Positions 14,571 through 61,213 of a DNA stretch of 64,000 bases are shown here, one piece after another. The DNA lies in NCBI GenBank assembly GCA_965237985.1, contig OZ250161.1, forward strand, positions 104,078-168,077. Reading direction: 5' to 3'. The position numbers and the translations under genes are program-made. Source of the DNA: Candidatus Oxydemutatoraceae bacterium. GTDB taxonomy: Bacteria; Pseudomonadota; Gammaproteobacteria; Poriferisulfidales; Oxydemutatoraceae. The notes below the pieces were generated by a model. The model saw only the letters and a program-made list of their open reading frames with translations. It did no database searches and had not been told where the DNA came from. Each line of letters starts with the position of its first letter. The first letter of the stretch is position 1.

Positions 14571-16568
14571 CTTTGAAAACAGGAGCATGAAGCCATGAGG
14601 CCTCCTGCACGTTTGTTGCTTGAAGACGGCACTGTTTTTTGTGGTTGCCAAGTGGGTGGGGACCAACGAGGGGATGGCGGTCGGCGAAGTGGTGTTCAAC
14701 ACGGCGATGACTGGTTACCGGGGGATATTGACCGCTCGTCTTGCCGACAGCAGATTATTACCTTGACCTGCCCGCATGTCGGCAACGTCGGGACAAACGG
14801 TGAAGATTCTGAATCGTCCAATTGAAAACAGGAGCATGAAGCCATGAGGCCTCCTGCACGTTTGTTGCTTGAAGACGGCACTGTCTTTTGTGGTCGCCAG
14901 GTGGGGACCGACGAGGGGATGCGGTCGGCGAAGTGGTGTTCAACATGGCGATGACTGGTTACCAGGAGATATTGACCGATCCGTCTTACCGACAGCAGAT
15001 TATTACCTTGACCTGCCCGCATGTCGGCAACGTCGGGACAAACGGTGAAGATTCTGAATCGTCCAATTGAAAACAGGAGCATGAAGCCATGAGGCCTCCT
15101 GCACGTTTGTTGCTTGAAGACGGCACTGTCTTTTGTGGTCGCCAAGTGGGGACCGACGAGGGGATGGCGGTCGGCGAAGTGGTGTTCAACACGGCGATGA
15201 CTGGTTACCGGGGGATATTGACCGATCCGTCTTGCCGACAGCAGATTATTACCTTGACCTGCCCGTATGTCGGAAACGTCGGGACAAACGGTGAAGATTC
15301 TGAATCGTCCAATTGAAAACAGGAGCATGAAGCCATGAGGCCTCCTGCACGTTTGTTGCTTGAAGACGGCACTGTCTTTTGTGGTCGCCAAGTGGGGACC
15401 GACGAGGGGATGCGGTCGGCAAGTGGTGTTCAACACGGCGATGACTGGTTACCGGGGGATATTGACCGATCCGTCTTACCGGCAGCAGATTATTACCTTG
15501 ACCTGCCCGCATGTCGGCAACGTCGGGACAAACGGTGAAGATTCTGAATCGTCCAATTGAAAACAGGAGCATGAAGCCATGAGGCCTCCTGCACGTTTGT
15601 TGCTTGAAGACGGCACTGTCTTTTGTGATCGCCAAGTGGGTGGGGACCAACGAGGGGACGGCGGTCGGCGAAGTGGTGTTCAACACGGCGATGACTGGTT
15701 ACCGGGGGATATTGACCGATCCGTCTTGCCGACAGCAGATTATTACCTTGACCTGCCCGTATGTCGGCAACGTCGGGACAAACGGTGAAGATTCTGAATC
15801 GTCCAATTGAAAACAGGAGCATGAAGCCATGAGGCCTCCTGCACGTTTGTTGCTTGAAGACGGCACTGTCTTTTGTGGTCGCCAAGTGGGGACCGACGAG
15901 GGGATGGCGGTCGGCGAAGTGGTGTTCAACATGGCGATGACTGGTTACCGGGGGATATTGACCGATCCGTCTTACCGGCAGCAGATTATTACCTTGACCT
16001 GCCCGCATGTCGGCAACGTCGGGACAAACGGTGAAGATTCTGAATCGTCCAATTGAAAACAGGAGCATGAAGCCATGAGGCCTCCTGCACGTTTGTTGCT
16101 TGAAGACGGCACTGTCTTTTGTGGTCGCCAGGTGGGGACCGACGAGGGGATGCGGTCGGCGAAGTGGTGTTCAACATGGCGATGACTGGTTACCAGGAGA
16201 TATTGACCGATCCGTCTTACCGACAGCAGATTATTACCTTGACCTGCCCGCATGTCGGCAACGTCGGGACAAACGGTGAAGATTCTGAATCGTCCAACTG
16301 AAAACAGGAGCATGAAGCCATGAGGCCTCCTGCACGTTTGTTGCTTGAAGACGGCACTGTTTTTTGTGGTTGCCAAGTGGGTGGGGACCAACGAGGGGAT
16401 GGCGGTCGGCGAAGTGGTGTTCAACACGGCGATGACTGGTTACCGGGGGATATTGACCGCTCGTCTTGCCGACAGCAGATTATTACCTTGACCTGCCCGC
16501 ATGTCGGCAACGTCGGGACAAACGGTGAAGATTCTGAATCGTCCAATTGAAAACAGGAGCATGAAGCC
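14571..16568 (+). repeat. Tandem array of eight partial copies of the carA 5' end (about 246 bp each; 5'-UTR with SD plus first 74 codons), head-to-tail directly upstream of intact carA
   Basis: ATGs at 14595, 14844, 15089, 15335, 15579, 15829, 16079 and 16320 each follow GAAAACAGGAGCATGAAGCC. Each copy ends ...GAAGATTCTGAATCGTCCAATTGA. The ninth ATG at 16569 is the intact gene. Confidence 0.9.
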
Positions 16569-17702
16569 ATGAGGCCTCCTGCACGTTTGTTGCTTGAAGA
16601 CGGCACTGTCTTTTGTGGTCGCCAAGTGGGGGCCGAGGGGATGGCGGTCGGCGAAGTGGTGTTCAACACGGCGATGACTGGTTACCAGGAGATATTGACC
16701 GATCCGTCTTACCGACAGCAGATTATTACCTTGACCTGCCCGCATGTCGGCAACGTTGGGACAAACGGTGAAGATTCTGAATCATCCACAGTATTTGCTT
16801 CTGGTCTGGTGTTGCGGGATGTTCCGCTCATGGAACAGAACTGGCGTAGCGAATGTTCTCTTCCTGACTTTTTGAAACTGCGGGGAGTGGTCGCGATTTG
16901 TGATGTGGATACCCGGCGCCTGACGCGACATTTACGTGATCAGGGTGCGAAAAACGGGGTTTTGTACAGCACAGACTATAGCGATGAAGAAGCAAAGAAA
17001 GCTCTGTTGGCATTTCGTGGACTGTCCGGCACTGATCTGGCAGCGGAAGTCAGCACCTCCCACGCCTACGACTGGGATGAAAGTGTGTGGTGCCCTGGAG
17101 GCGGGTTTGCCACCAGGAACGACGGTGATTTCTACGTGGTGGCATATGATTTTGGAATCAAGCGGACGATTTTGAGAATCCTGACCAGCCTGAATTGCAA
17201 AGTGCGTGTTGTGCCGGCTAAAACCCCGGTGGGTGAGGTTTTGTCCTTGCGACCTGATGGTGTGTTTTTGTCCAATGGCCCGGGAGATCCGGAGCCATGT
17301 TTTTACGCGATCGAGTCAGTGCGTAAGATCCTGGATGCAGGCATCCCTTTGTTCGGGATATGTTTGGGGCATCAGCTGCTGTCTTTGGCGTGTGGTGCGC
17401 GCACTGTGAAGATGAAATTTGGCCATCATGGTGCCAACCATCCGGTTGAAGAACTGGCGACCGGAAAAGTCTTGATTACTTCCCAGAACCACGGTTTTTG
17501 TGTTGACGAGAGTTTTTTGCCTTCCTGTTTGTCCGCGACCCACCGCTCCCTTTTTGACCAGAGCCTGCAGGGGGTTCATCACACCGGGAAACCGGCCTTC
17601 GGGTTCCAGGGACACCCCGAAGCCAGCCCCGGCCCGCACGATCTGGTACCGTTTTTCTCCCACTTCATGGATTTGATGAAAGATTGTGCCAAAAAGAACT
17701 GA
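16569..17702 (+). CDS. carA: Carbamoyl-phosphate synthase small subunit CarA
   Basis: N-terminus [21 protein letters not shown]...[20 protein letters not shown]. GATase triad region GICLGHQ. It overlaps the carB start. Confidence 0.9.
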
Positions 17703-20921: not shown

Positions 20922-21398
20922 ATGGAACGTGTATTGCTGACTGTCGCGGGGGCAAAGCAACTTCAAGAAGAGCTGGATGATTTGAAAAGCCGGCAACGCC
21001 CCACTATTACCGCCGCAATTGCCAGGGCCCGCGAACATGGGGATCTGCGTGAGAATGCGGAGTACCAGGTGGCTCGGGAAAAACAAAGTTTTTGCGAGGG
21101 ACGCATCAGTGGAATTGAAACCAAACTAGCCAGTGCCGAAATTATTGATGTAATGAAAATAAATGCCCGTGGAAAAGTGATTTTTGGCTCAACTGTCGTC
21201 GTTCATGATCGGGGCACAGACAAAACGCTTCGCTACCGTATCGTGGGAGAAGACGAGGCCAATGTCGACAAGGGAATCATATCGTTTTCTTCCCCTGTTG
21301 GGCGCACCTTGATTGGCCACGAGAAAGGTGATGTGGTGGAGATTAAAACGCCAGGCGGCGTGAGAGAGTGCGAAATCCGGGAAGTACTGTATATTTGA
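20922..21398 (+). CDS. greA: Transcription elongation factor GreA
   Basis: [22 protein letters not shown]... GreA N-terminal coiled coil. GGAG lies 8 nt upstream of ATG 20922. carA-carB-greA order. Confidence 0.9.
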
Positions 21399-21404
21399 GT
21401 TACG

Positions 21405-21455
21405 AGTCAGTTGCTGATAAACGGGTAACTGTCAGATCAGGTCTAAACTTCTACA
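21405..21455. repeat. Solo terminal fragment of the IS481-family element present at 58.6 and 62.6 kb
   Basis: GTCAGTTGCTGATAAACGGGTAACTGTCAGATCAGGTCTAAACTTCTACA matches the right end of the IS at 60700-60756 (52 of 56 positions, 2-nt gap plus 3 substitutions; 51 of 56 bases are present). Confidence 0.5.
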
Positions 21456-21758
21456 AGTTACGCAAGCGCCGGGTACTGTTGCAAAGCCTTTTCAGTCACC
21501 CAAATCACCCCTTTCAATCCTCATTTTTTTCGGTCTTGAAACAAGGGTCCGGAGTGGGTACCAGCTTCAAGCTTTCCTGGTTTGCAAACAGCCCGGTTCT
21601 TCGCTGCGCCTGTCTTTAGACTGAAGAGGCTGAACTTCCCTGCCACGCCCTTCCGAATAAGGGCACGAACCTCGTTTCTCCTGAGCTTACAAACAAATGC
21701 CCAGTCCTGGAGTCAGAGCAGGGCGATTTCAGTAGCGGCACCAAATCGGGCCTCATCA

Positions 21759-23630
21759 TCACGATTTCCCCTTTGGTGATTCTACTTCTTTCCCTTCGCA
21801 AAAGTGCACGAATCCTTTAACGTTGCCCACGACCCACTCAAACTCTTCCTTCGTAAGTTCTTGGCCGTCTTGACTGAATTTTTTCCTGTATACAGGTTCA
21901 CTGGCTTTTTTGTGCATTAGAGTGAGAAGGTTTTTACCTTCTCGGTTGTACATGGGTATTCCCGTTTTCCGGTTTACAGGCAATTGTTTGATGACCCTGT
22001 CGACACAATGCATTAGTTTTGCACTGGGTACGCGCCTGCAGCAGCTTTCGGCAACATCTGGGATGCCCAATATGCCGGTTTCTTTAAAATCAGTCGACCA
22101 CTTTGCATTTGTTGATGATTTCTCCATGTGCTCCAGATCAAACAGTGTGTCTCTGTTTGGTGCACGTCCATTTTTCAGTGTGAGGTAGCTAAGACAGTGC
22201 TTTGTATTTGCACTCACTTTCGTGCCCTCAATATACCCTGCCAATCTATACCCTTCCAATCTTTCGCCAATTCTTTTTTCCAAGGTGGCTGTCAGTTGCG
22301 CATGTAAGCGATTCTGTCCTGATGAAGAGATTCCGGGCGCAAAAGCGAGCGGTTCCTCTGCTGTCCTGATATCAAAAAATTCTGTGACATGATAAGCCTG
22401 CATTTTATGAGTTGCCCAGTAATCTCTACGTTGAATCCATGTTTCGTTATCAGAAATTGTCCGTGTCTTCCCGGACACCGCAACAAGTGTTTTCGTTATT
22501 TCTATTTTGGGGCGTTCTGCCCCTACACTTTTCCCTATTATTGCTGCGTCGGTTTTGCCGGCATCGGGCTTCGTTGCGCTCGTGTCTGGTGTATTTTTTC
22601 CAGTTATAGGCCGATTTCTGCCGCTTCCGGGATCTTTTGCCACTTTGATACGACTACTCTCATCTTGTGGCGTAGGCCCACTTTTGGTGGTACTGGATTT
22701 ACTGGATTGTGGTGTTCCTGCTCTGCTCGTGTTCGGCGTTTCTTTTTTTTTGTTCCTTGTAGGCTGACTGTTGCCTTTTTTCGCAGGGGGCTTCAGATTT
22801 TGTTTCGGGTTTTTTGTTAGGGCATTGCTGGCTGCCGTTCCTCGTGTTAAGTCCCTCCGGGTTACTCGTTTTTTTTCTGTCACCGGCTGACTGTTGCCGG
22901 GATCTTGTGTCGTACCTGTGAGGTGACTTTGCTCTTGTGTTGCAACCGTAGATGTCAGGTTGGTGTGTTCCTCAGTGGGTTTTTTGTCTGTCACCGGCTG
23001 ACTGTTGCCGGGATCTTGTGTCGTACCTGTGAGGTGACTTTGCTCTTGTGTTGCAACCGTAGATGTCAGGTTGGTGTGTTCCTCAGTGGGTTTTTTGTCT
23101 GTCACCGGCTGACTGTTGCCGGGATCTTGTGTCGTACCTGTGAGGTGACTTTGCTCTTGTGTTGCAGCCGTAGATGTCAGCTTGGTGTGTTCCTCAGTGG
23201 ATTCTTTGTCTGTTGCCGGGTCTTGAAAGGTGCTGGGCGTGATGGCTTCAGTGTTAGTTTTGGGAAGTTCAGTGCCCGGGGTGTTCTGGTTGCCTCCCGT
23301 ATCGGGTGTGGCTCTGCTGCTGGCAAGTCTTTGCGATTCCTCATGGATGTAACGGTTAAACTCCCTCCTGTTCTGCAAGGTTTTTTCTTGTTCTGTGGAG
23401 ATCTTGAATTCCTCATTTTCACTACCAAGAGCTGCAGCCAGTATATTCCTGCGGCTCTGCAGCTCTTGCTTGCGATAATTTTCACTGAACTTGTAGCGAA
23501 AAATATGCACTACCCAGCCTGAGAATGAGTTCTTGAGAACACATTGCCCGTTACCATTGTCTGTTTGTACCCCCAGTCTGCCCAGCTGACTTCTGGCAGC
23601 TCTCTGCAAGATTCCATCACCAATTTCCAT
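21759..23630 (-). CDS. Hypothetical protein, 623 aa, with central Thr/Gln/Ser-rich low-complexity region (3 x 37-aa repeats) and a conserved-looking C-terminal domain
   Basis: Long open frame. Repeat TDKKPTEEHTNLTSTVATQEQSHLTGTTQDPGNSQPV x3. No recognisable family. Confidence 0.55.
   Translation of the reverse strand: MEIGDGILQRAARSQLGRLGVQTDNGNGQCVLKNSFSGWVVHIFRYKFSENYRKQELQSRRNILAAALGSENEEFKISTEQEKTLQNRREFNRYIHEESQRLASSRATPDTGGNQNTPGTELPKTNTEAITPSTFQDPATDKESTEEHTKLTSTAATQEQSHLTGTTQDPGNSQPVTDKKPTEEHTNLTSTVATQEQSHLTGTTQDPGNSQPVTDKKPTEEHTNLTSTVATQEQSHLTGTTQDPGNSQPVTEKKRVTRRDLTRGTAASNALTKNPKQNLKPPAKKGNSQPTRNKKKETPNTSRAGTPQSSKSSTTKSGPTPQDESSRIKVAKDPGSGRNRPITGKNTPDTSATKPDAGKTDAAIIGKSVGAERPKIEITKTLVAVSGKTRTISDNETWIQRRDYWATHKMQAYHVTEFFDIRTAEEPLAFAPGISSSGQNRLHAQLTATLEKRIGERLEGYRLAGYIEGTKVSANTKHCLSYLTLKNGRAPNRDTLFDLEHMEKSSTNAKWSTDFKETGILGIPDVAESCCRRVPSAKLMHCVDRVIKQLPVNRKTGIPMYNREGKNLLTLMHKKASEPVYRKKFSQDGQELTKEEFEWVVGNVKGFVHFCEGKEVESPKGKS
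22880..23215. repeat. 111-bp tandem repeat x3 inside the 21759..23630 ORF
   Basis: Direct read of the sequence. Period is about 110-111 bp. Confidence 0.8.
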
Positions 23631-24367: not shown

Positions 24368-24541
24368 TGGGGTTTCAACGGCCCCGGCATCATTTCTTGA
24401 CCCCTCACTGCCTTTGTGCTCTGGTGATGGTTTTGTGTTTCCTCAGTCAATGGGAGAATAGACGGAAACAAAGTGCGACCACACGTTCACTTGTAAATGC
24501 AACATCCAGCAGGTAGCACTGGCATTCGGACATCGGCAGAT

Positions 24542-25234
24542 GGGGCTGATTTGTGGCTACGGTCAGTGGTTTCCGTCCTGTTTCAGTCGTCCGGATTTTT
24601 TAGTTTTTTTGCAGTGCGTAAATGGTTGCGAGTGCCTGGCGAGGAGACAGTTCGTTTGGGTCCAGTTTTTTCAGAGCTTTCAATGCCGGGTGGTGGTGGT
24701 CAAATGCGAGTTTCGGTTGCTGCGGGGAGGGTTTTTGGACACACTGCATGGCTTCCAGCTCCTCCAGCTTCTGGGGCTGATTTGTGGCTACGGTCAGTGG
24801 TTTCCGTCCTGTTTCAGTCGTCCGGATTTTTTAGTTTTTTTGCAGTGCGTAAATGGTTGCGAGTGCCTGGCGAGGAGACAGTTCGTTTGGGTCCAGTTTT
24901 TTCAGAGCTTTCAATGCCGGGTGGTGGTGGTCAAATGCGAGTTTCGGTTGCTGCGGGGAGGGTTTTTGGACACACTGCATGGCTTCCAGCTCCTCCAGCT
25001 TCTGGGGCTGATCTGTGGCTACGGTCAGTGGTTTCCGTCCTGTTTCAGTCGTCCGGATTTTTTAGTTTTTTTTGCAGTGCGTAAATGGTTGCGAGTGCCT
25101 GGCGAGGAGACAGTTCGTTTGGGTCCAGTTTTTTCAGAGCTTTCAATGCCGGGTGGTGGTGGTCAAATGCGAGTTTCGGTTGCTGCGGGGAGGGTTTTTG
25201 TTTTTGGGCACACTGCATGGCTTCCAGCTCCTCC
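24542..25234. repeat. 231-bp unit x3 comprising the last ~63 codons of mutS plus ~42 bp of 3' flank; two extra copies lie downstream of the mutS stop
   Basis: Units start at 24542, 24773 and 25004. The third overlaps the genuine mutS 3' end (stop 25045). Confidence 0.85.
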
Positions 25235-27630
25235 AGCTTCGCAAGCGCCTGTTTCAGGGTGGCTTCCGGAAGACCTGCCAGGCGGGCGACCTGGATGCCG
25301 TGGCTGCGGCTGGTGCCTCCGACTTTTACTTTGTGCAAAAACACGACTTCTCCGGCGTGCTCTATTGCGTCCATGTGGACATTTTGCACTTGTGGGTATT
25401 TTTCGCAGAGCGTTGTCAATTCGAAATAGTGTGTGGCAAACAATGTCAGTGAGTGGTTCCGGCTTGCCAGTTCTGCCGCACATGCCCAGGCCAGGCTGAG
25501 TCCGTCGAAGGTACTTGTTCCCCTTCCGATTTCATCCATCAGTACCAGGCTGTCCGGCCCGGCGTTATTCAAAATGTTGGCTGATTCCGTCATTTCCACC
25601 ATGAATGTAGAACGTCCCGAGGCGATGTCATCTGCCGCGCCAATCCTCGTGTAAATGCAATCCAGGGGGCCGATGGTGGCTTCTGTAGCAGGCACCCAGG
25701 CGCCGATATGTGCCAGTAAGGCAATTTGAGCTGTTTGGCGCATGTAGGTGGATTTTCCGCCCATATTCGGTCCGGTGATTACCAGCATGCGTTGTTTCTC
25801 ATCCAGATCGAGGTCGTTTTCCACGAAAATGTTTTCCTGGCTGAGTTCTACGACGGGATGTCGTCCGCCCTTGATGTGTATCCCCCGGGAGGCAGCCAGT
25901 GTCGGTCGGCAGTACTTTCGTTCTTCTGCGCATTTGGCAAGGGTGGTAATGACATCTGTCGCAGCCAGAGCGGCTGATGTTGCCTGCAGGCGACTGATGA
26001 AGGGGCGGAAATAAAGCAGGATTTCCCGGAACAGTTTTTTCTCTTTGGCAAGTGCTTGATCGCGGGCGGCAAGTACACGGCCTTCCAGAGATTTCAATTC
26101 GGCAATGGAGTAACGTTCTGAGTGTTTTAGCGTTTGCATTCTTCGGTAGTCCTCCGGAGCTTTCTCAGCAACTGCGCGTGGCATCTCTATGTAATAGCCG
26201 TGCACCCGGTTGTAAGCGACGCGCAAATTATTGACTCCTGTCCTGCGCCGTTCCCGATTTTCAATTTCTATCAAATGTCCGGAAACGTTTTTATGCAGTC
26301 CGCGAAAATAGTCCAATTCCGGGTCGTATTTGGAGCGAATGACTCCGCCATCACGTATGGTGGCAGGGGGAGTGTCCACAATTGCCTGTGCAAGATGTTG
26401 TGCGAGTTCCGGTTCGGGGTGCAGGTTGGCATCAAGATTTTTGGCCAGCGGGCTTGTCAGAGTGCCCAGCGTAGTTTTCAAAACCGGCACCAGCTCCAGA
26501 GTTTCCCGAATGCCGTTCAGATCTCGGGGTTTTGCTGTTTCCAGAACCACGCGTGCCAGCATGCGTTCCAGGTCATTACTGCGTCCCAGTATGGCGCGTA
26601 GATTGTGCAGGGTTTCCTTATGTACCAGTTCGCCGATCAGTTCCTGGCGTTTTTGCAGGGCTTCGCGTTGCCGTAAGGGACTGGCAAACCAGCGCCGCAA
26701 ACAGCGCGCTCCCATGCTGGTAACGGTGTGATCGTGAATGCCAACGAGCGTTCGCTTGTGATCGCCTGAAGTCGATTTTTCTATTTCCAGGCAACGGCGA
26801 CTTGTGGCGCTGAGCTGCACAAAATCTTCATCGTTTTCCACGATGAGGCTACGCAAATGTGGCAACTCTGATTTCCTGGTGTCCAGCACGTATTGCAAAA
26901 GCGCCCCGGCAGCTGCAACAGCCGTGTCTTTGTTTATGCAACCGAATCCTTCCAGACCCAGCACCTCAAGCTGCCGGCATAATAGCCTGCGTGCATTTCT
27001 TATCAGAAAAACTGATGCCGGCAAGCTTTGCGGCTGGTGCTTTTCCAAAGTGAAAGTGCGGTTTTCACTGACCAGAAGTTCAGCCGGATGCAGGCGGTCT
27101 ATTTCATCATCCAGTGCGGCGTGGCTGGCAGTCTGGCGGATAGTCAAACGACCGGAACTGAGTTCAAGCGTGGCGATGCCGAATACCGGCTGTTTTGTTT
27201 TTTCATCGCTATGTACGGCCATGACCAGATTGTCTCGTTGCTCATCCAGCAGTGTGTCTTCAACGACGGTTCCCGGAGTGACCACGCGCACCACTTTGCG
27301 CTCCACAGGCCCGCGGCCTTGTACCGGGTCGCCGACCTGGTCGCAGATTGCCACAGTCTTTCCCAGGCGAACCAGTTTGGCGAGATAGCTTTCCACCGCA
27401 TGTACTGGCACACCAGCCATGGGCACTTTCTTATTGCCGTAACGGCCGCGGGAAGTCAAAGTAATATCAAGGAGCTTTGCTGCTTTTTCGGCATCGTGAA
27501 AAAACAGTTCATAAAAATCCCCCATATGATAGAAAAGCAGGGTGTCCGGGTATTCAGACTTTATGCGCAGGTACTGCTGCATCACGGGGGTGTGTTCGCT
27601 GATCATGAGTGTGCTGCTCTCCAGGGGCAT
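25045..27630 (-). CDS. mutS: DNA mismatch repair protein MutS
   Basis: 861 aa. N-terminus [28 protein letters not shown]. Walker [10 protein letters not shown]. Confidence 0.95.
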
Positions 27631-51100: not shown

Positions 51101-54100
51101 ATGATGGCGAGTAAAATTGGTGGTCTGTTTGGGAAGTATTCGGGCACGTATGCCACAAGTGGTCGGGGTGGTGTGGGGCGCGAGGTGCTGGATGCCAAGG
51201 GGCAACGAAAAACGTCACGATACGAGTTGCGTGGTTTTGATGATAATGTTCCCCGAATCAGCAAGCGTGGCGGCAATTTTCTTGACCGTGTCGTATGTTG
51301 GCTTGAAGACCGTGTTTTTTCGCTTACGAGAAGTGGGAAATCTCCCTCGCTACGGCAAAAATCCAGCTATCAATTTGCTTATGATGTTGGTGAAGCACTT
51401 CTGGAAATAGACCCGAATCTGGGTGCTGAGGGTGGAAATGTCGACACACATGAGCTGGTGCGACGAATAGAATCTGTTCGGGTGCGGGATTTGTCACTTC
51501 GGTCAGGCTTTGTTCGCGATATTCTTCAGGAGGTTGCGACCTTGGCGCGGGAAGCAGATCATGGAGACACGCTGCCAGAGTTGGCCAGAAACGCTTTTCC
51601 CGTACAGAATCCTGTACGGGATGAAGACCCAGAGCAACCGGCTGCCGACCCGGAAGCGGGTGCCCCAGGCAATAATCACGAAGACGAAGAGGCGTTCCAG
51701 CAGGTTCTACCTCCTCCAGATGCACCCGTGGGTAGGGAAAATCGGCAGGAAGGTGGTGAAGATGTAGCCCCCCCTGATAGACCAGTTGAGCTTAATCAAG
51801 AAGTGGCGCCTCAGCTTGTTGCTAGACCAGCTGAGGCGCTATTTAACTTTACGGGTCTGAGTGAAGAAGAATTGTTCGACAAACTCCGCGACCCGGTGAG
51901 GTCTAAAATGGTTAAACCATTGCTGGATCAGCGGAATTTTTGGAAGGATGGGGACTATGAAGAGAAAAACAAGGCAGCTGATGCTATGGTCCATTTGGTG
52001 TCTGCCAAACTTGTTGGGGGTTTTGGTGGTTGTGAAAACGTACAAAAAGTTATGAATAATCACCTGGGTACTTTGAGGAATTTTGATATTCCAGAGGACC
52101 AGCGGACTGATGGGCAACTGCAAACAGAGGCACTGAATATCACAGTTCAGACATTCTCAGAAAATGAGGACGCTCTTGAGAGTACGTATCGGATCGTCGT
52201 AGAGGGAATTGGTAATTATACAGGTAGAAAAGAAGGCGTTTTTCTTGGCGCGGAAAATGTCGAGCAGCAGCCTATTGTTCACCCGGAAATGGGTGTCCCA
52301 GGCAATGGTCGCGGAGACGAAGAGCTGCCCCACCCGGTTCTACCTCCTCCCAATGTATTCGCCGCGCGGGGGGGATATCGGCAGCAGGAAGGTGGTGCAT
52401 ATGTTGCAGTCCAGCGTGATGGACCAGTTGCGCCTCATCAAGAAATGCAGATTCAGCCTGCTGCTGATCCAGTTGAGGAGAAATTTAGCTTTACGAATCT
52501 GAATGATGAACAATTGTTCGACAAACTCAACGACCCGGTGAAGTCTAAAATAGTTAACCCATTGCTGGAAGATCGGGATTTTTGGGAGGGTGGGTACAAT
52601 GAAGAGAAAGGCAAAGTAGTTGATGAGATTGTCCGTTCGGTGTCTGCCCGGCTTGTTGCTGTTTTGGGAAATCATGAACAGGTGAAACTTGATGCGAATG
52701 ACAAACTGGAAGTTTTGACGTTTTATGATGATAAAACTGATAAGCTGACTGATATGCAACTGCAAAGAGGGGCACTGGGTGTCGTAGTTCAAGAACACAT
52801 GGAAAAGGATGCAGAGCAGACGAAGCGGATCGTCATGGCGGGAATTAACCGTTATTTGGGTCAAGGCGTTCCTCTTGGCGTGGAAAATGTCGAGCAGCCG
52901 CCTTTTGCTGGTCCAGTTGAGGCGCCATTTAGCTTTGCGGATCTGGATGATGGACAATTGTTCGACAAATTACGCGCCCCGGTGATGTCTAAAATAGTTA
53001 ACCCATTGCTGGCCGAACAGGGTTTTTTGAAGGGTAGGTACAGTGACGAGGAACAAAAGGTAGTTGATAGGATTGTCCGTCTTGTGTCTATCCGGCTTGT
53101 TACTTCTTTTGGAAATTATAATGAGGTACGAGATGCTGCGAATAAAAACCTGGATACTTTGAGAGAACAAGACCAGGTGGGGCAGACTGATGCGCAACTG
53201 CAAACCTGGGCGCTGGAGCTCGTGGCTGTAGAATACGACGAAGAAAAGGCTGCAGGTCAAGCGATGCAGGTCGTCACACAGGAAATTAGTCGTCATGGCG
53301 CTCATGGGAGGGAGAAAGTGGATATGCACCCCGGCCCCAAGTCTACTGCACCTCCTGAAGATGTGGCGCAGGTTCAGCTTGCTGCTGATTCAGTTAGGGG
53401 GGTATTTAGCTTTATGGGTCTGGAAAATGAAGAATTTTATAGCAGACTCAGCGAACCGGTGAAGTCTAAAATAGTTGCCCCAGAGCTGAGAGAGCAGGAT
53501 TTTTTGCAGGATGGGGCAGATGAGAAGACAGTGGATATCGTTAGGTGGATTTCTAGGACGGTGGCTGGTGAGATTGTTGCCACTTCTGGAGGTATTGGAG
53601 AGGTAAAACAGGCTGCGAATGAAGCACTGGAATTATATAGAGTTGCTGTTGATGAAAATAACCCGCTGTCTGATGAGCAACTGCAATCCAGGGTGCTGGA
53701 GAACGTAGTTGAACAATACCAAGGAAAAGGGGCTGATGTAGTAGGCAGGTTGAAGGAGACCGTCGCGACGGAACTTGTCTATCATTTGAACAAAGCAAAG
53801 AAACCAAGCGCGCCAGTTGAAGAGCAGAAAGAGGTGGCGGCTGATCGGCCGGCAAAACCACAATACGCTATGCCAGGCGTGCAAGCTGAAGGAGTTCATG
53901 CTGCCCAACAAAGAGCTCTTGATGAGCAATTACCTTTTCAACAAATGTCTTCCGAAGGGTTTTTGAAAAGGCTCAGTGAGCAGGTAGAAGCCGAATATGT
54001 GCTTCCTGTACTTGGTGCTATGGAGAGGCAGGATGGTCCGGAAAAGGACAAGATGAAAGAAATAATGACGGTGAACGCAACTGTCTGGTTTGTCGCGAGT

Positions 54101-54532
54101 ATTAAGGGAGGTAAGACTGATATAATCAAGCAGGGAGCACAGGAAAGCTACAATGTAAAAGCCACTTTCTATGGACCTGAAGTTCAGGGGGGCGAGATTC
54201 AAAACGAAGTACTGAAGAATTTGTGTGTTGATGGTTTGACGGGTAGGGAGAAAGAAAAGCTGTATAAGATAGCTGGAGATAACACTTTGATTCAAGCTGG
54301 TCTGGGGAGGGATGATGATGTGTATATTGGAAAGGTCATTTTGGATAGAATAGCGGGCTATTTGGAAGTGGAAGCCCGGCGCCTCCCCGCCCACGGATCA
54401 GCTGTGGAGCACCAGCATGGTAACAACATTATCGACCCTAACAAAGAGGCTGTTGCTGGTTCTCAATCTATCGTGCCTGAGCCTGATGATTTTAGCCAGC
54501 CGGTTGGACCCACCCGTTCCGGTAGGTCGTAA
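51101..54532 (+). CDS. Paralog B, the only apparently intact member (1143 aa): conserved N-domain, four to five ~150-aa modules, distinct C-terminal domain
   Basis: Uninterrupted ORF. Modules begin FNFTGLSEEELFDKLRDPVRSKMVKPLL, FSFTNLNDEQLFDKLNDPVKSKIVNPLL, FSFADLDDGQLFDKLRAPVMSKIVNPLL and FSFMGLENEEFYSRLSEPVKSKIVAPEL. Confidence 0.7.
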   Translation: MMASKIGGLFGKYSGTYATSGRGGVGREVLDAKGQRKTSRYELRGFDDNVPRISKRGGNFLDRVVCWLEDRVFSLTRSGKSPSLRQKSSYQFAYDVGEALLEIDPNLGAEGGNVDTHELVRRIESVRVRDLSLRSGFVRDILQEVATLAREADHGDTLPELARNAFPVQNPVRDEDPEQPAADPEAGAPGNNHEDEEAFQQVLPPPDAPVGRENRQEGGEDVAPPDRPVELNQEVAPQLVARPAEALFNFTGLSEEELFDKLRDPVRSKMVKPLLDQRNFWKDGDYEEKNKAADAMVHLVSAKLVGGFGGCENVQKVMNNHLGTLRNFDIPEDQRTDGQLQTEALNITVQTFSENEDALESTYRIVVEGIGNYTGRKEGVFLGAENVEQQPIVHPEMGVPGNGRGDEELPHPVLPPPNVFAARGGYRQQEGGAYVAVQRDGPVAPHQEMQIQPAADPVEEKFSFTNLNDEQLFDKLNDPVKSKIVNPLLEDRDFWEGGYNEEKGKVVDEIVRSVSARLVAVLGNHEQVKLDANDKLEVLTFYDDKTDKLTDMQLQRGALGVVVQEHMEKDAEQTKRIVMAGINRYLGQGVPLGVENVEQPPFAGPVEAPFSFADLDDGQLFDKLRAPVMSKIVNPLLAEQGFLKGRYSDEEQKVVDRIVRLVSIRLVTSFGNYNEVRDAANKNLDTLREQDQVGQTDAQLQTWALELVAVEYDEEKAAGQAMQVVTQEISRHGAHGREKVDMHPGPKSTAPPEDVAQVQLAADSVRGVFSFMGLENEEFYSRLSEPVKSKIVAPELREQDFLQDGADEKTVDIVRWISRTVAGEIVATSGGIGEVKQAANEALELYRVAVDENNPLSDEQLQSRVLENVVEQYQGKGADVVGRLKETVATELVYHLNKAKKPSAPVEEQKEVAADRPAKPQYAMPGVQAEGVHAAQQRALDEQLPFQQMSSEGFLKRLSEQVEAEYVLPVLGAMERQDGPEKDKMKEIMTVNATVWFVASIKGGKTDIIKQGAQESYNVKATFYGPEVQGGEIQNEVLKNLCVDGLTGREKEKLYKIAGDNTLIQAGLGRDDDVYIGKVILDRIAGYLEVEARRLPAHGSAVEHQHGNNIIDPNKEAVAGSQSIVPEPDDFSQPVGPTRSGRS

Positions 54533-55489: not shown

Positions 55490-56095
55490 GATTTTTCCAG
55501 GTTCCGGTTAAATATGCAGGGAATGGTTGCGTTCCGGTTATTCTGCCACATCTTCCGGCTCAGGTTCAGGTACTGGTAGGGCAGGGTGCCGGTAAGGGTG
55601 CAGTGGCAACCAGTTTTTCCGTCCAGATTACGTGTCATTAGAAAACGACCGGATGCTCGCACACGATCGATCGGGGGGGCATGACGAAGTTCCAGCAGGA
55701 AATGCCTGAGCTAAAAAGCAAGCATCTCAAATGGGATAAAACCGGCATGATCAGGTTGCTCAGCACCGACAGAAAATTTGACACAGAGATTCTGTTGGTT
55801 TAGAATACAGGGACTGGCTGGGTTCGCGTGCGGTGGTTCAGTGGACATTCGTCGGTGTTGTTGTATAGCAGCGGAGGGGCTGTCGGCGTGCGAATCATTG
55901 AACGATGCGGGTGCGAGAAGTGGCTGTGAGTGGTCATTCACTCTTGGGTGCTGCTGTGAGAAAAACAGCTGTGGCAAGCTGTCCCGGGTATGGGGCTGAT
56001 GGCCCATGTTTCAATCAAAGCCGATAAAGGCTGTTTTTCGGATTGCCGGAGCATGGTGGAGCGCATATGCATCCATGAGTTGAAAACTGGAGGTA

Positions 56096-56659
56096 ATGAT
56101 GGCGAATGAAATTAGTGGTCTGTTTGGGAAGTATGAGAGCACGTATACCACAGTTCAGAGTGGGGGAGCTCGCGAGGAGATGGATGCCAAGGGGCAACGA
56201 AAGACGTCACGATACGAGTTGCGTGGTTTTGATGCTGATGGTCTCCGAATCAGCAAGCGTGGCGGCAATTTTCTTGACCGTGTCGTATGTTGGTTTGAAG
56301 ACCGTGTTTTTTCGCTTACGAGAGTGGATGCGACTATCTCTATACGGCAACAATCCAGCAAACAATTTGCTGAAGATGTTTCCGCAGCACTTATAGCAAT
56401 GGACCCGAAACTGAAAGTTGTAGACCCGAATCCGGAAGCTGTGGGCCATAATCTGAAAGAGGGGGAAATAGATCTCAGCAAACATGATTTGATGCAACAA
56501 ATAGAATCTGTTCGGGTGCGGGATTTGCCACTTCGGTCAGGCTTTGTTCTCGGTATTCTTCAGGAGGTTGCGAACTTGGCGCGGATGAATGAAGGTAGTG
56601 TAGGCAATCTGCCAGATTTGGCCAAAAAGGCTTTTCCCGACAATCGAGCCAACCCCTAA
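56096..56659 (+). CDS. Paralog C, truncated (187 aa), followed by out-of-frame module fragments up to about 57000
   Basis: Same conserved N-terminus, then stop. ORF 56748..57140 continues with an FSFTNLNDEQLYGRL module in another frame. Confidence 0.5.
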   Translation: MMANEISGLFGKYESTYTTVQSGGAREEMDAKGQRKTSRYELRGFDADGLRISKRGGNFLDRVVCWFEDRVFSLTRVDATISIRQQSSKQFAEDVSAALIAMDPKLKVVDPNPEAVGHNLKEGEIDLSKHDLMQQIESVRVRDLPLRSGFVLGILQEVANLARMNEGSVGNLPDLAKKAFPDNRANP

Positions 56660-57129
56660 CCGGCTGTCCACCCGGCTCTACCTTTTTCCAATGCATTCGG
56701 GGGTAGGGGAAATCGACAGGAAGGTGGTGAGGATGTAGCCCGCCCTGATGGATCAGCTGAGCCTCATCAAGGAGTGCAGATTCAGCCTGTTGCTGGATCC
56801 AGTTGAGGAGCAATTTAGCTTTACGAATCTGAATGATGAACAATTGTACGGCAGACTCCGCGGCCCGGTGAGGTCTGAAATAGTTAACCCATGTCTGAAC
56901 GAGCAGAATTTTTGGAAGGATGGGGAAGATGAAGGGAAAATGCGGTTCGTTGATGAGATTGTCCATGAGGTGGCTGTGAGAAAAACAGCTGTGGCAAGCT
57001 GTCCCGGGTATGGTCTGATGATCAATGTTTCAATCAAAGCCGACAGATGCTGTTGTTCTGGTTGCCGGAGTATGGTGGAGCGTTCCTTGGCCGCATTATG
57101 CATCCATGAGTTGAAAACTGGAGGCAATT

Positions 57130-58368
57130 ATGGCGAATGATATTGGCGGTCTGTTTAAAAAGTATTCGGGTACGTATTCCACGGCTCAGGGTTCCACGGC
57201 TCAGGGTGATGTGGGTCGCGAGGTGCTGGATGCCAAGGGGCAACGAAAGACGTCTCGGCACGAGTTGCGTGGTTTTGATGCTGGTGTTCCCCGAATCAGC
57301 AAGCGTGGCGGTAATTTTCTTGACCGTGTCGTATGTTGGCTTGAAGACCGTGTTTTTTCGCTTACGAGAAGTGGGAGCCGTCTCTCGCCACGGCAAAAAT
57401 CCAGCAATCAATTTGCTGCTGATGTTGCTGAAGCACTTCGAGAAATAGACCCGGATCTGGTTGCTGAGGGTGGAGGTGGCGAGAAACATGATCTGGTGCG
57501 ACGAATAGAATCTGTTCAGGTGCGGGATTTGCCACTTCGGTCAGGCTTTGTTCGCGGTATTCTTCAGGAGGTTGCGACCTTGGCGCGGAGAGCAGAGCAT
57601 GGAGACAAGCTGCCAGATTTGGCCAAAAACGCTTTTCCCGTACAGGATGGAAGGCTAGGGCAACCGGCTGTCCACCCGGAAGTGGGTGCCCAAGACAATC
57701 GCGAAGCCGAAGAGGTGATCCACCAGAATCTACCTTTGCCCCATGCACTCGGGGGTAGGGGAAATCGGCAGGAAGGTGGTGAAGATGTAGCCCGCCCTGA
57801 TGGATCAGCTGAGCCTCATCAAGGAGTGCAGATTCAGCCTGTTGCTGATCAAGTTGAGGAGCCATTTAGCTTTGCGGATCTGAATGATGAACAACTTTTG
57901 GGCAGACTCAGAGAACCGGTGAAGTCTAAAATGATTATCCCAGTGCTGCGCGAACGGGGTTTATGGGCGGCGGGGGCAGGTGATGAGCAAGAGCGGGAGC
58001 AGATAGCTGATAGGATTGTCGATGATGTGGCTAACGCGGTTGTTGCTGCTGGTAAAGGTGGTCTTGAACAGCTAAAACTTGATGCGGATGGTTCACTGGG
58101 TTTATTGAGAACTGTTGCTTCTTCTGGCCGTGAGGTCGTGGTGACTGATAGGCAACTGCAAAACAGGGCATTGAAAGCCGTAGTTGAACAACACATAGGA
58201 AGACTTTCTGCAGTCCGGTCGGTGGAGATCGTCACGGAGATAATTGACCGTCATCTTAGAGGGCGACCAGACGGTCTTAGCATGGAAAATCACGGGCAAG
58301 AGGTAGTGGATGATGAGTGGCTGGCAGTGCCAGGCGAGCAAGCTAAAGCAGTTCATACTGCCCAATAA
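57130..58368 (+). CDS. Paralog D (412 aa); its C-terminal region is cut by an IS481-family insertion at 58558
   Basis: Conserved N-terminus (MANDIGGLFKKYSGTY...) and two modules. After the stop, in-frame remnants of the family C-terminal domain (MTVNATVCFVVNIK) run into the IS end. Confidence 0.6.
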   Translation: MANDIGGLFKKYSGTYSTAQGSTAQGDVGREVLDAKGQRKTSRHELRGFDAGVPRISKRGGNFLDRVVCWLEDRVFSLTRSGSRLSPRQKSSNQFAADVAEALREIDPDLVAEGGGGEKHDLVRRIESVQVRDLPLRSGFVRGILQEVATLARRAEHGDKLPDLAKNAFPVQDGRLGQPAVHPEVGAQDNREAEEVIHQNLPLPHALGGRGNRQEGGEDVARPDGSAEPHQGVQIQPVADQVEEPFSFADLNDEQLLGRLREPVKSKMIIPVLRERGLWAAGAGDEQEREQIADRIVDDVANAVVAAGKGGLEQLKLDADGSLGLLRTVASSGREVVVTDRQLQNRALKAVVEQHIGRLSAVRSVEIVTEIIDRHLRGRPDGLSMENHGQEVVDDEWLAVPGEQAKAVHTAQ

Positions 58369-58557
58369 AGACAGAATGATGAGTAATTATCTTTTCAAGA
58401 AATGTCTTCCGAAGGGTTTTTGAAAAGGCTCAGTGAGCAGGTAGAAGCCCAATATGTTCTTCCTCATGCTAAGGGGGTTCAGAATGGTCCGGAAAGGGAA
58501 CGGATGAAAAAAATAATGACGGTGAACGCAACTGTCTGTTTTGTCGTGAATATAAAG

Positions 58558-60756
58558 TGTAGAAGTTTAGACCCAATCTGACACATCACTCAATCAAGCT
58601 GAGCGCAGCGAAGCTTGATTGAGTGAGAGTTACCCGTTTAGATGTAATTGCAATATTAACATCCAAACAAAGAGGTAACTCTCATGATCCATACTAACGA
58701 TAAAGTCATTAAATATAAAGTCGGCCTACTCAATCTGGCTGAAGAACTCGGAAACGTCTCAAAAGCCTGCAAGATGATGGGCGTATCCAGAGATACTTTC
58801 TATCGATACAAAGCCGCTGCTGATGAAGGTGGCATTGAAGCACTTTTTGATCAAAACAGGCGTATCGCGAACCTCAAAAATAGAGTTGATCCTGCGATTG
58901 AATCCATCGTCGTTGAACACGCTCTGGAAGAACCTGCCCATGGGCAGACCCGAACCAGCAATGAGCTACGCAAAATGGGGACATATTATTTCGCCGACGG
59001 GCGTACGAAGTATTTGGTTACGCCATAACCTGGCTTGCTTTAAATGTAGAAGTTTAGACCCAATCTGACACATCACTCAATCAAGCTGAGCGCAGCGAAG
59101 CTTGATTGAGTGAGAGTTACCCGTTTAGATGTAATTGCAATATTAACATCCAAACAAAGAGGTAACTCTCATGATCCATACTAACGATAAAGTCATTAAA
59201 TATAAAGTCGGCCTACTCAATCTGGCTGAAGAACTCGGAAACGTCTCAAAAGCCTGCAAGATGATGGGCGTATCCAGAGATACTTTCTATCGATACAAAG
59301 CCGCTGCTGATGAAGGTGGCATTGAAGCACTTTTTGATCAAAACAGGCGTATCGTGAACCTCAAAAATAGAGTTGATCCTGCGATTGAATCCATCGTCGT
59401 TGAACACGCTCTGGAAGAACCTGCCCATGGGCAGACCCGAACCAGCAATGAGCTACGCAAAATGGGGACATATTATTTCGCCGACGGGCGTACGAAGTAT
59501 TTGGTTACGCCATAACCTGGCTTGCTTTAAATGTAGAAGTTTAGACCCAATCTGACACATCACTCAATCAAGCTGAGCGCAGCGAAGCTTGATTGAGTGA
59601 GAGTTACCCGTTTAGATGTAATTGCAATATTAACATCCAAACAAAGAGGTAACTCTCATGATCCATACTAACGATAAAGTCATTAAATATAAAGTCGGCC
59701 TACTCAATCTGGCTGAAGAACTCGGAAACGTCTCAAAAGCCTGCAAGATGATGGGCGTATCCAGAGATACTTTCTATCGATACAAAGCCGCTGCTGATGA
59801 AGGTGGCATTGAAGCACTTTTTGATCAAAACAGGCGTATCGTGAACCTCAAAAATAGAGTTGATCCTGCGATTGAATCCATCGTCGTTGAACACGCTCTG
59901 GAAGAACCTGCCCATGGGCAGACCCGAACCAGCAATGAGCTACGCAAAATGGGGACATATTATTTCGCCGACGGGCGTACGAAGTATTTGGTTACGCCAT
60001 AACCTGGCTTGCCTTAAAGATCGACTCAAAGCACTATCCGATAAAGTGGCCACTGAAGGCCTGATTCTTACTGAACCTCAAGTCGCTGCCATGGAACGCA
60101 AACAAGATGACGATCAGGCCTGTGGTGAGATAGAAACAGCCCACCCTGGCTATTTGGGCTCGCAAGACACTTACTATGTGGGTATATTCAAGGATATTGA
60201 CCGAGTCTATCAGCAGACGTTTGTTGATACTTACAGTAAAGTCGCTCACGCCAAGCTCTACACCACCAAAACGCCGATTACCGCCGCTGATATGCTCAAT
60301 GATCGTGTGTTGCCGTTCTATGAGGAACAAGCACTTCCCATGCTGCGGATTCTCACCGACCGTGGTACAGAATATTGTGGTCGAGCTGACCAACATGATT
60401 ACCAGCTCTACCTGGCTTTGAATGATATTGAGCACACCAAAACCAAAGTCAGGTCACCGCAAACCAATGGCATTTGTGAACGCTTCCACAAGACCCTTCT
60501 CAATGAGTTTTACCAAGTGACCTTGCGTAAGAAAATCTATCAATCGATAGAAGAATTACAAATTGATCTTGACAAATGGCTCATCAAATACAATACTCAA
60601 CGAACTCACCAAGGCAAAATGTGCTGTGGGAGAACGCCGATGGAAACTCTCATCGACGGCAAATCAATCTGGAAGGAAAAGTCTTTGAACTAAACTTAAC
60701 CTGACAGTCGGTTGCTGATAAACGGGTAACTGTCAGATCAAGTCTGAATTTCTACA
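58558..60756 (+). mobile_element. IS481-family insertion sequence whose left end (terminal repeat, leader and first 114 codons) is tandemly triplicated (3 x 487 bp)
   Basis: Terminal repeats TGTAGAAGTTTAGACCCAATCTGACA at 58558 and TGTCAGATCAAGTCTGAATTTCTACA ending at 60756. Unit starts at 58558, 59045 and 59532. rve-type DDE ORF at 59860..60693. Confidence 0.8.
59658..60693 (+). pseudogene. IS481-family transposase (HTH plus rve DDE domain) with a +1 frameshift near 59960 relative to the inverted copy
   Basis: ORF A ends ...ELRKMGTYYFADGRTKYLVTP-stop while ORF B continues HIISPTGVRSIWLRHNL. The copy at 63.3 kb reads ELRKMGTFVSPTGVRSIW in one frame. The difference is GACATATTATTTCGCC versus GACATTTGTTTCGCC. 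Confidence 0.7.
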
Positions 60757-61213
60757 CATTAGAAAACGACCGGATGCTCGCACACGATCGATCGGGGGGG
60801 CATGACGAAGTTCCAGCAGGAAATGCCTGAGCTAAAAAGCAAGCATCTCAAATGGGATAAAACTGGCATGATCAGGTTGCTCAGCACCGACAGAAAATTT
60901 GACACAGAGATTCTGTAGGTTTAAAATACAGGAACTGGCTGGGTTCGTGGATATTCGTCGGTGTTGTTGTATAGTAGCGGAGGGGCTGCTGGCGTGCGAA
61001 TTATTGAACGATGCGGGTGCGAGAAGTGGCTGTGAGTGGTCATTCACTCTTGGGTGCTGCTGTGAGAAAAACAGCTGTGACAAGCTGTCCCGGGTATGGG
61101 GCTGATGGCCCATGTTTCAATCAAAGCAGATAAAGGCTGTTTTTCGGATTGCCGGAGCATGATGGAGCGTTCCTTGGTCGTGTTATGCATCCATGAATTG
61201 AAAACTGGAGGTA

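Follow-up and report, generated by a model that had tools for sequence, protein, structure and literature searches.

The left end of an IS481-family element is present three times in tandem

The window analysed here is a continuous stretch of 64,000 nucleotides from contig OZ250161.1 of Candidatus Oxydemutatoraceae bacterium. It contains a complete insertion sequence (IS) of the IS481 family, referred to as copy 1, which is preceded by two additional head-to-tail copies of its own leftmost 487 bp (Table 1). Each of the three units comprises the left terminal inverted repeat (IRL), a structured leader, and an open reading frame (ORF) with a helix-turn-helix (HTH) domain. Only the third unit runs on into the DDE part of the transposase gene, where the domains rve and rve_3 were found, and the whole arrangement has a single right terminal inverted repeat (IRR).

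A sequence-only reading of this DNA had described the triplication, and Tandem Repeats Finder, alignment of the units and the positions of the IRL all agree with it. Tandem Repeats Finder reports a repeat at 58553-60018 with a period of 487, 3.0 copies, 99% matches and a score of 2909; the start at 58553 is due to a chance TAAA(G) similarity. The array covers 1.46 kb, its length is exactly 3.0 units, and the units meet without shared bases. The 26-nt IRL TGTAGAAGTTTAGACCCAATCTGACA is found at 58558, 59045 and 59532, where the chance expectation is none. Alignment and site-by-site comparison reveal that the 487-bp units differ at two sites only: IS position 311 reads C, T and T in units 1, 2 and 3 (58868, 59355 and 59842), and IS position 482 reads T, T and C (59039, 59526 and 60013). 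Of these variants, only one falls within the ORF, where it makes a non-synonymous A-to-V change. Every unit encodes a 114-aa ORF with an HTH_29 domain (Pfam), ending in ...YLVTP before the stop codon. These data confirm that the three-unit array is real, and exclude chance as its source.

It had also been stated that each unit holds 114 codons of the transposase. There is indeed an ORF of 114 aa, but its last 14 codons are out of frame, and the unit spans about 120 native codons. As had been noted, all three units carry the same frameshift, which is caused by an extra A (58985, 59472 and 59959).

The IS leader RNA (59532-59675, the same in units 1 and 2) is predicted to form two strong hairpins (-47.6 kcal/mol, z = -7.1). 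The second of these pairs GAGAGUUACC with GGUAACUCUC, burying the ribosome-binding site just 5' of the start codon, and on this folding model the hairpin likely provides translational control of the transposase.

Table 1. Coordinates of the left-end array, the IS copies, their flanks and the other long-period arrays of the window.
Feature	Position	Strand	Description
Unit 1 (La)	58558-59044	+	IS positions 1-487: IRL, structured leader, HTH ORF and 16 nt past its stop; C311, T482
Unit 2	59045-59531	+	Same 487 bp; T311, T482; 5' part of unit-3 type, 3' part of unit-1 type
Unit 3	59532-60018	+	First 487 bp of the complete element; T311, C482
Complete IS481-family element, copy 1	59532-60756	+	1225 bp
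IRL of unit 1	58558-58583	+	Identical IRLs at 59045-59070 and 59532-59557
Single IRR	60731-60756	-	TGTAGAAATTCAGACTTGATCTGACA read inward
114-aa ORF	58684-59028	+	100 native N-terminal codons (HTH_29), then 14 frameshifted codons; further copies at 59171-59515 and 59658-60002
Extra A at IS position 428	58985	+	Shifts the frame; also at 59472 and 59959; not in copy 2 or intact copies
DDE (rve/rve_3) transposase part	59960-60693	+	+1 frame relative to the HTH ORF
CTTTAAA, IS interior positions 481-487	59038-59044	+	Adjoins the next TGTAG; again at 59525-59531
Left flank	58467-58557	+	Ends in TATAAAG; paralogue of 54016-54106 (84% identity), which continues as coding DNA
Right flank	60757-60947	+	Starts with CATTAGA; paralogue of 55636-55826 (98% identity)
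Copy 2 of the same IS	62578-63802	-	Single ends; decayed (TAG stop, frameshift); 18 differences from copy 1
carA 5' array	14573-16788		246 bp x 9; unit of 22 nt upstream and about 75 codons
In-frame coding repeat	22868-23213	-	111 bp x 3 inside ORF 21759-23630
mutS 3' array	24541-25240		231 bp x 3, 98% identity; spans 3' end and downstream DNA of mutS (25045-27630, -)
thiD-upstream duplication	33652-33943	gene -	146 bp x 2, blunt; upstream region and first codons
rpe 5' array	40309-42975	gene -	239 bp x 10.9; units of 236-260 bp, about 88% identity

The element is a frameshifted member of a family with intact copies

Deletion of one base, the extra A at position 428, gives an uninterrupted 344-aa transposase. 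This repaired protein scores 270.6 bits against the IS481-family model NF033577 of NCBIfam (cutoff 224) and 83.9 bits against the IS3 model, which is below the cutoff of 160. It is 97% identical to the intact 344/347-aa proteins P0001 and P0122, and the DNA of copy 1 is ~70% identical to annotated IS481-family elements on plasmids. The IRL and the IRR, of 26 nt each, are identical at 21 of 26 positions and start with TGTAG. With the IS481 family, whose prototype is IS481 of Bordetella pertussis, the element shares a single-ORF transposase with HTH and DDE (rve) parts (344 aa after repair), a length of ~1.2 kb (1-1.3 kb in the family), terminal inverted repeats starting with TGT, and short target duplications in its relatives. 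IS481 itself makes 6-bp duplications at NCTAGN, whereas the present subgroup makes 7-bp duplications at NNTNANN, as described below, and copy 1 further departs from the prototype in its frameshift, its unmatched flanks and its three left ends.

Neither P0001 nor P0121, both intact relatives (344 aa, 97% identity), has the extra A, and it is also absent from the DNA of L118, an intact copy from another sample that has single ends and a 7-bp target duplication, TTTAATG. Its absence there shows that the copy-1 frameshift is a mutation and not a two-ORF design; programmed frameshifting was rejected on the same ground, and a +1 shift would in addition be needed without a recognisable signal. At positions 4438-4451 of L118, 52 bp upstream of the intact copy, lies a left-end remnant of 14 nt that is identical to the start of the IRL (TGTAGAAGTTTAGA).

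The proteins P0001 and P0122 apparently lie on the same contig as P0123, a CarA that is 100% identical to the CarA of the window. Judging from this placement, the source genome also carries intact copies, and a source of transposase acting in trans is present.

The copy at 62.6 kb (copy 2) is single-ended, as the sequence-only reading had said. The same holds for L118 and for 36 full-length relatives, which means that triplication is no inherent feature of the element. Copies 1 and 2 share a stretch of 504 nt that is 100% identical and inverted (60256-60759 against 62575-63078), made up of the right 501 bp and three flank bases (CAT), and are 97-98% identical outside it. Such a contrast in identity indicates recent gene conversion between the two copies, by which the frameshift could also have spread. 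The earlier claim that the triplication took place after the frameshift therefore stands as the most parsimonious order but is unproven, since gene conversion among copies could also have distributed the lesion.

The internal joints fit the target rule of the subgroup

At both internal joints, the IS interior stops at position 487 (...GCTTTAAA) and TGTAG begins at the very next base, without any intervening flank base or shared sequence. The joints read ...GGCTTGCTTTAAA/TGTAGAAG (a slash marks the joint here and below), and the full sequence of the joint between one left end and the next is GCTTTAAATGTAGAAG. The native left flank, for comparison, reads ...ATATAAAG/TGTAG, and the native interior goes on as ...TTAAAG/ATCG. 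Microhomology through the TAAAG common to both places was considered and rejected, as the G would remain and give units of 488 bp, whereas the units are 487 bp long with no G. An internal pseudo-IRR was rejected as well, given that there is no CA-3' and that only 4 of 9 terminal bases match. From the lack of a CA-3' end and of any likeness to the IRR, it follows that the interior side acted as a target and not as a pseudo-end. Abutment of an IRR with an IRL was not seen either: there is no IRR at 59020-59044 or 59507-59531, and the only IRR of the element is that at 60731-60756.

The target rule of this IS subgroup was read from an inverted-repeat pattern search, which gave at least 116 loci in many genomes and, among them, 36 full-length relatives with both flanks. 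Identical 7-bp flanks were seen in 24 of these 36 relatives among the matches listed, representing 23 distinct sequences. All 23 distinct target duplications have T at position 3 and A at position 5, and NNTNANN is thus the newly read-out target rule of the present IS481 subgroup. The interior side of the joint, CTTTAAA, fits this rule, and 7-mers of this form make up 5.2% of the window. Its native counterpart in unit 3 is CCTTAAA (60012-60018). No match to the 487/1 joint or to the IS leader was obtained in metagenome scans.

Joints of the same kind are found in other genomes

IS sequence lies directly outside a terminus at 6 of the 173 ends examined, namely the two in the window and those at the loci L010, L027, L028 and L064. 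The sequence-only reading had considered that the triplication might be routine in other copies, and this count speaks against that. At L010, a 133-bp left-end fragment lies outside a complete copy, with the joint CATGATT/TGTAG. At L064, a 68-bp right-end fragment lies outside the copy, with the joint at ATTCATT, and L028 has two right-end fragments, 63 bp, with the joint at ACTTAAC. The joints of L010, L064 and L028 all fit NNTNANN (3/3). At L027, a right-end relic is interrupted by a complete copy, whose target duplication is CTTAACC. Compared with the copies of its own genome, the outer fragment of L010 is 95.5% identical to every one, and more than eight of them match the inner unit at 100%; L010 is therefore a young copy inserted into an older one, and not a product of slippage. 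In short, this IS group lands in its own sequence, and its terminal multimers are rare exceptions to the usual structure of the element.

Copy 1 sits on a rearrangement joint

The outer 7-mers of copy 1 (TATAAAG and CATTAGA) do not match, so there is no target duplication, and the points that match its two flanks are 1529 bp apart in a paralogous segment. On these two grounds, the element sits on a rearrangement joint. A rearrangement would explain the missing target duplication, and the layout of the flanks fits an IS-associated deletion joint. Copy 2 likewise lacks a target duplication, with unmatched outer 7-mers TGTTATG and GCTTAAG, and its flanks also map to unrelated points; the sequence next to its IRL, from 63803 on, corresponds to that from 55026 on. 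Restoration of target duplications by a simple inversion between the two copies was rejected, as the flank pairs still mismatch.

Every IS end in this region (55636-58368 and 60757-62577) falls exactly at a paralogy breakpoint. The surrounding paralogous gene cluster at 56.1-62.2 kb has no Pfam domain and includes 57130-58368 (412 aa) and 61214-62236 (340 aa), and fragments of the paralogous genes, also without a Pfam domain, are found at 56096-57140 and 62400-62582.

A transposase-made joint followed by one crossover probably produced the array

We consider it probable, although by no means settled, that the left 487 bp of a decaying IS481-family element was made tandem by a transposase-mediated joint and then raised to three units by unequal crossover. 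The transposase of an intact copy elsewhere would have acted in trans on a defective copy, joining the left terminus of a complete copy to CTTTAAA (positions 481-487) within the transposase gene of a same-orientation sibling, to give the arrangement L-L-R (L, left end; R, right part). Several routes could lead there. A sibling may have inserted at CTTTAAA of a resident copy to give L-L-R-R, after which the tandem right parts would have collapsed by recombination, with a separate event exchanging the flanks. Alternatively, in an attack by the left end of a downstream copy on an upstream sibling, the intervening DNA may have been deleted, which would give L-L-R in one step and account for the missing 1.5 kb and the unmatched flanks as well. 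Yet another route would have a small autointegration circle re-enter by homologous recombination. The data do not separate these routes, all of which need a trans-acting transposase on a defective copy, or later conversion.

In the second step, L units of two sister chromosomes would have undergone one unequal homologous crossover, yielding a hybrid middle unit and the arrangement L-L-L-R. If the parental units were La (C311, T482) and Lb (T311, C482), a crossover between the two sites predicts units of (C, T), (T, T) and (T, C), and this is the pattern seen. With a hybrid middle unit to explain, a single crossover is more parsimonious than three successive insertions at one site, which were therefore rejected. 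In this account the array would be a by-product of genome decay, with a neutral origin that accounts for everything observed.

Several observations weigh against this account. The window holds no reciprocal product: the predicted joint of a nested insertion, TTTCTACA followed by CTTTAAAGATCG, is absent, as are a displaced right part and a second CTTTAAA past the IRR at 60756, where non-IS DNA (CATTAGA) follows. A nested insertion would consequently need an extra loss step or a one-step deletion, and the latter would hold for IS481-family elements by analogy only. The frameshift in both parental units means that transposition acted in trans on a defective copy, unless conversion distributed the lesion. 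Blunt joints are also seen in other young arrays of the window, and bluntness by itself is therefore no pointer to a transposase. Finally, the crossover is a matter of parsimony from two sites, and one mutation before plus one after the triplication would fit equally well.

Other tandem arrays and competing explanations

Tandem Repeats Finder detects five other long-period arrays in the window (Table 1). Like the IS array, the young ones, among them the mutS 3' array, show blunt joints and no microhomology. Their joints, however, read CGTCCAA, CAGCTTC and TGTCGTG, which do not follow NNTNANN, and no IS end is involved. Diverged units with indels are also found among the other arrays. A related 1.9-Mb genome (L117) is syntenic but has no carA array, with a 275-bp spacer in its place, and carries an array of its own at a different locus (1-1364, 196 bp x 6.9), which indicates that the lineage is prone to arrays.

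The sequence-only reading had equated the IS array with the 5'-segment amplification of carA, rpe and thiD. This equation does not hold up, because the joint of the IS array lies exactly at an IS terminus and at a 7-mer of the target rule, because such joints recur at IS ends in unrelated genomes, and because the other arrays of the window are off the rule. As the mutS array lies at a 3' end, not all of the arrays are 5' segments in any case. The IS array and the others share later expansion by recombination between tandem units, as well as blunt joints, yet differ in how the joint arose. That the arrays seem to favour gene starts may reflect survivorship, in that only duplications spanning a gene boundary would leave an intact gene in a compact genome.

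The other arrays also bear on a more general explanation, namely that a duplication independent of transposase, of the kind seen at carA, rpe, mutS (3') and upstream of thiD, happened to begin at the IS terminus and was then expanded by recombination. The five other arrays, the equally blunt joints of the young ones and the array-prone state of the lineage all speak for this, and the period of 487 is near the dimer periods of carA (494) and rpe (484). An exact match to a terminus would nevertheless be expected with a chance of only ~1e-3 (about 12 boundaries x 7 termini / 64,000 positions), and the T3/A5 7-mer needed as well has a chance of ~0.05, giving a rough joint chance of the order of 1e-4. 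The joints of the other arrays are off the target rule, and terminus-to-interior joints are found in three unrelated genomes, all of them fitting it. We therefore judge a generic duplication to be unlikely. A stricter form, in which the IS array is the product of a genome-wide process making blunt arrays with units of ~240 bp or double that length, mostly across gene starts, and in which the match to terminus and target is coincidental or secondary, appears quite improbable.

Two further explanations, on which the structure of the units bears, fare less well still. An assembler could have expanded a single left end to three, and the genome is apparently a long-read metagenome assembly (contigs of relatives have names of the ctgN_58x_c type). 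The 1.46-kb array is shorter than long reads, however, the units are not identical and carry two unit-specific variants in the pattern predicted for recombination, and the diverged, indel-bearing units of other arrays in the window argue for real, old repeats; an artefact is accordingly very improbable. Selection could instead have favoured the amplification, with three doses of an HTH-only 114-aa product and three decoy IRLs damping the transposition of intact copies. Truncated DNA-binding derivatives of transposases (OrfA, InsA, Inh) are known inhibitors in IS1, IS911 and Tn5, and the likeness here lies in the HTH_29-containing ORF, known from sequence alone. The IRL, the leader and an intact HTH_29 ORF are kept in every unit, and there are intact, potentially active copies in the same genome. 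Against this, there is no sign of expression or purifying selection, with one substitution being A-to-V, the leader fold is predicted to sequester the ribosome-binding site, and a neutral origin covers all observations. We regard such selection as the least credible of these explanations, with very little to be said for its probability.

Some further details of the arrays can be added. In the carA array, the upstream units have frameshifting indels, non-adjacent units are near-identical (units 2 and 7, 100%; units 1 and 8, 99.6%; units 4 and 6, 98.8%), and the functional last unit is the most divergent (92-95%). At the rpe joints, a stretch of ~17 nt, AATGGCTCACCCAGCAT, stands before each ATG and is not native upstream sequence. 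Unit lengths cluster at 231, 239 and 246, with dimer periods of 484 and 494 and the IS unit at 487, and the density of long-period arrays is unusually high for a ~2-Mb genome.

Relation to known systems

Dimers of the (IS)2 type and IS circles, known from IS30, IS911 and IS21, are highly reactive intermediates in which IRR and IRL abut at a distance of a few bp. They resemble the favoured account, a transposase-made joint, in that tandem IS ends are made by the element's own transposase, but the present joint connects a left end with an interior target and contains no IRR. Tandem arrays of variable copy number have been reported for Ehrlichia ruminantium. The proposed second step would resemble arrays formed by unequal crossing-over, in which two units become three with a hybrid middle, and the genome is likewise rich in arrays of 100-500 bp; the seed joint, in contrast, is IS-specific here.

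Nested insertions and partial IS copies have been catalogued by ISfinder/ISbrowser (PMC2808865). They share with the present array a terminus placed against the interior of the same element at a site of target preference. What sets the array apart is the lack of a second 7-bp target and of the rest of the host copy, which would have been displaced, and the head-to-tail multiplication of the fragment. A 'sloppy' first strand transfer has been proposed for deletions caused by IS629 and other IS3-type copy-out-paste-in elements (bioRxiv 10.1101/2023.06.07.543989). It would produce joints from an exact IS terminus to a target that is not an end, as in the one-step deletion route above, and could give the joint between left ends, the missing 1.5 kb and the unmatched flanks in a single step. 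The proposal concerns the IS3 family only and is carried over by analogy, and nothing here separates it from nested insertion plus recombination. Nothing specific was found in the literature on tandem terminal multimers of IS481-type elements.

Overall, we see here a known kind of element altered by known processes, which makes a neat example and comes with a newly read-out target rule. If the favoured account is right, the insertion chemistry of a mobile element and ordinary homologous recombination can together build an IS with multiple ends. A clean 7-bp rule, NNTNANN, is gained for the present IS481 subgroup. For annotation, there is a warning that 'three left ends' need not mean a new kind of element, and that look-alike arrays in one genome may differ in origin. 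The three left ends and the frameshifted HTH ORFs offer handles on trans action and on inhibition by truncated products. The more interesting question is the abundance of long-period arrays in this gammaproteobacterial lineage of roughly 2 Mb.

Solo right-end fragments

Directly after the stop codon of greA, the window carries the solo right end of a related IS, a fragment of 51 bp (21405-21455, within 21398-21462) that lies between two identical 7-bp direct repeats, AGTTACG, which fit NNTNANN. As both target copies are retained around a solo fragment, the DNA lost by the inserted copy must run from its exact left terminus to about position 1174. Right-end relics of 55-66 bp that resemble the greA-adjacent fragment are found at L027, where the relic follows argG, and at L028.

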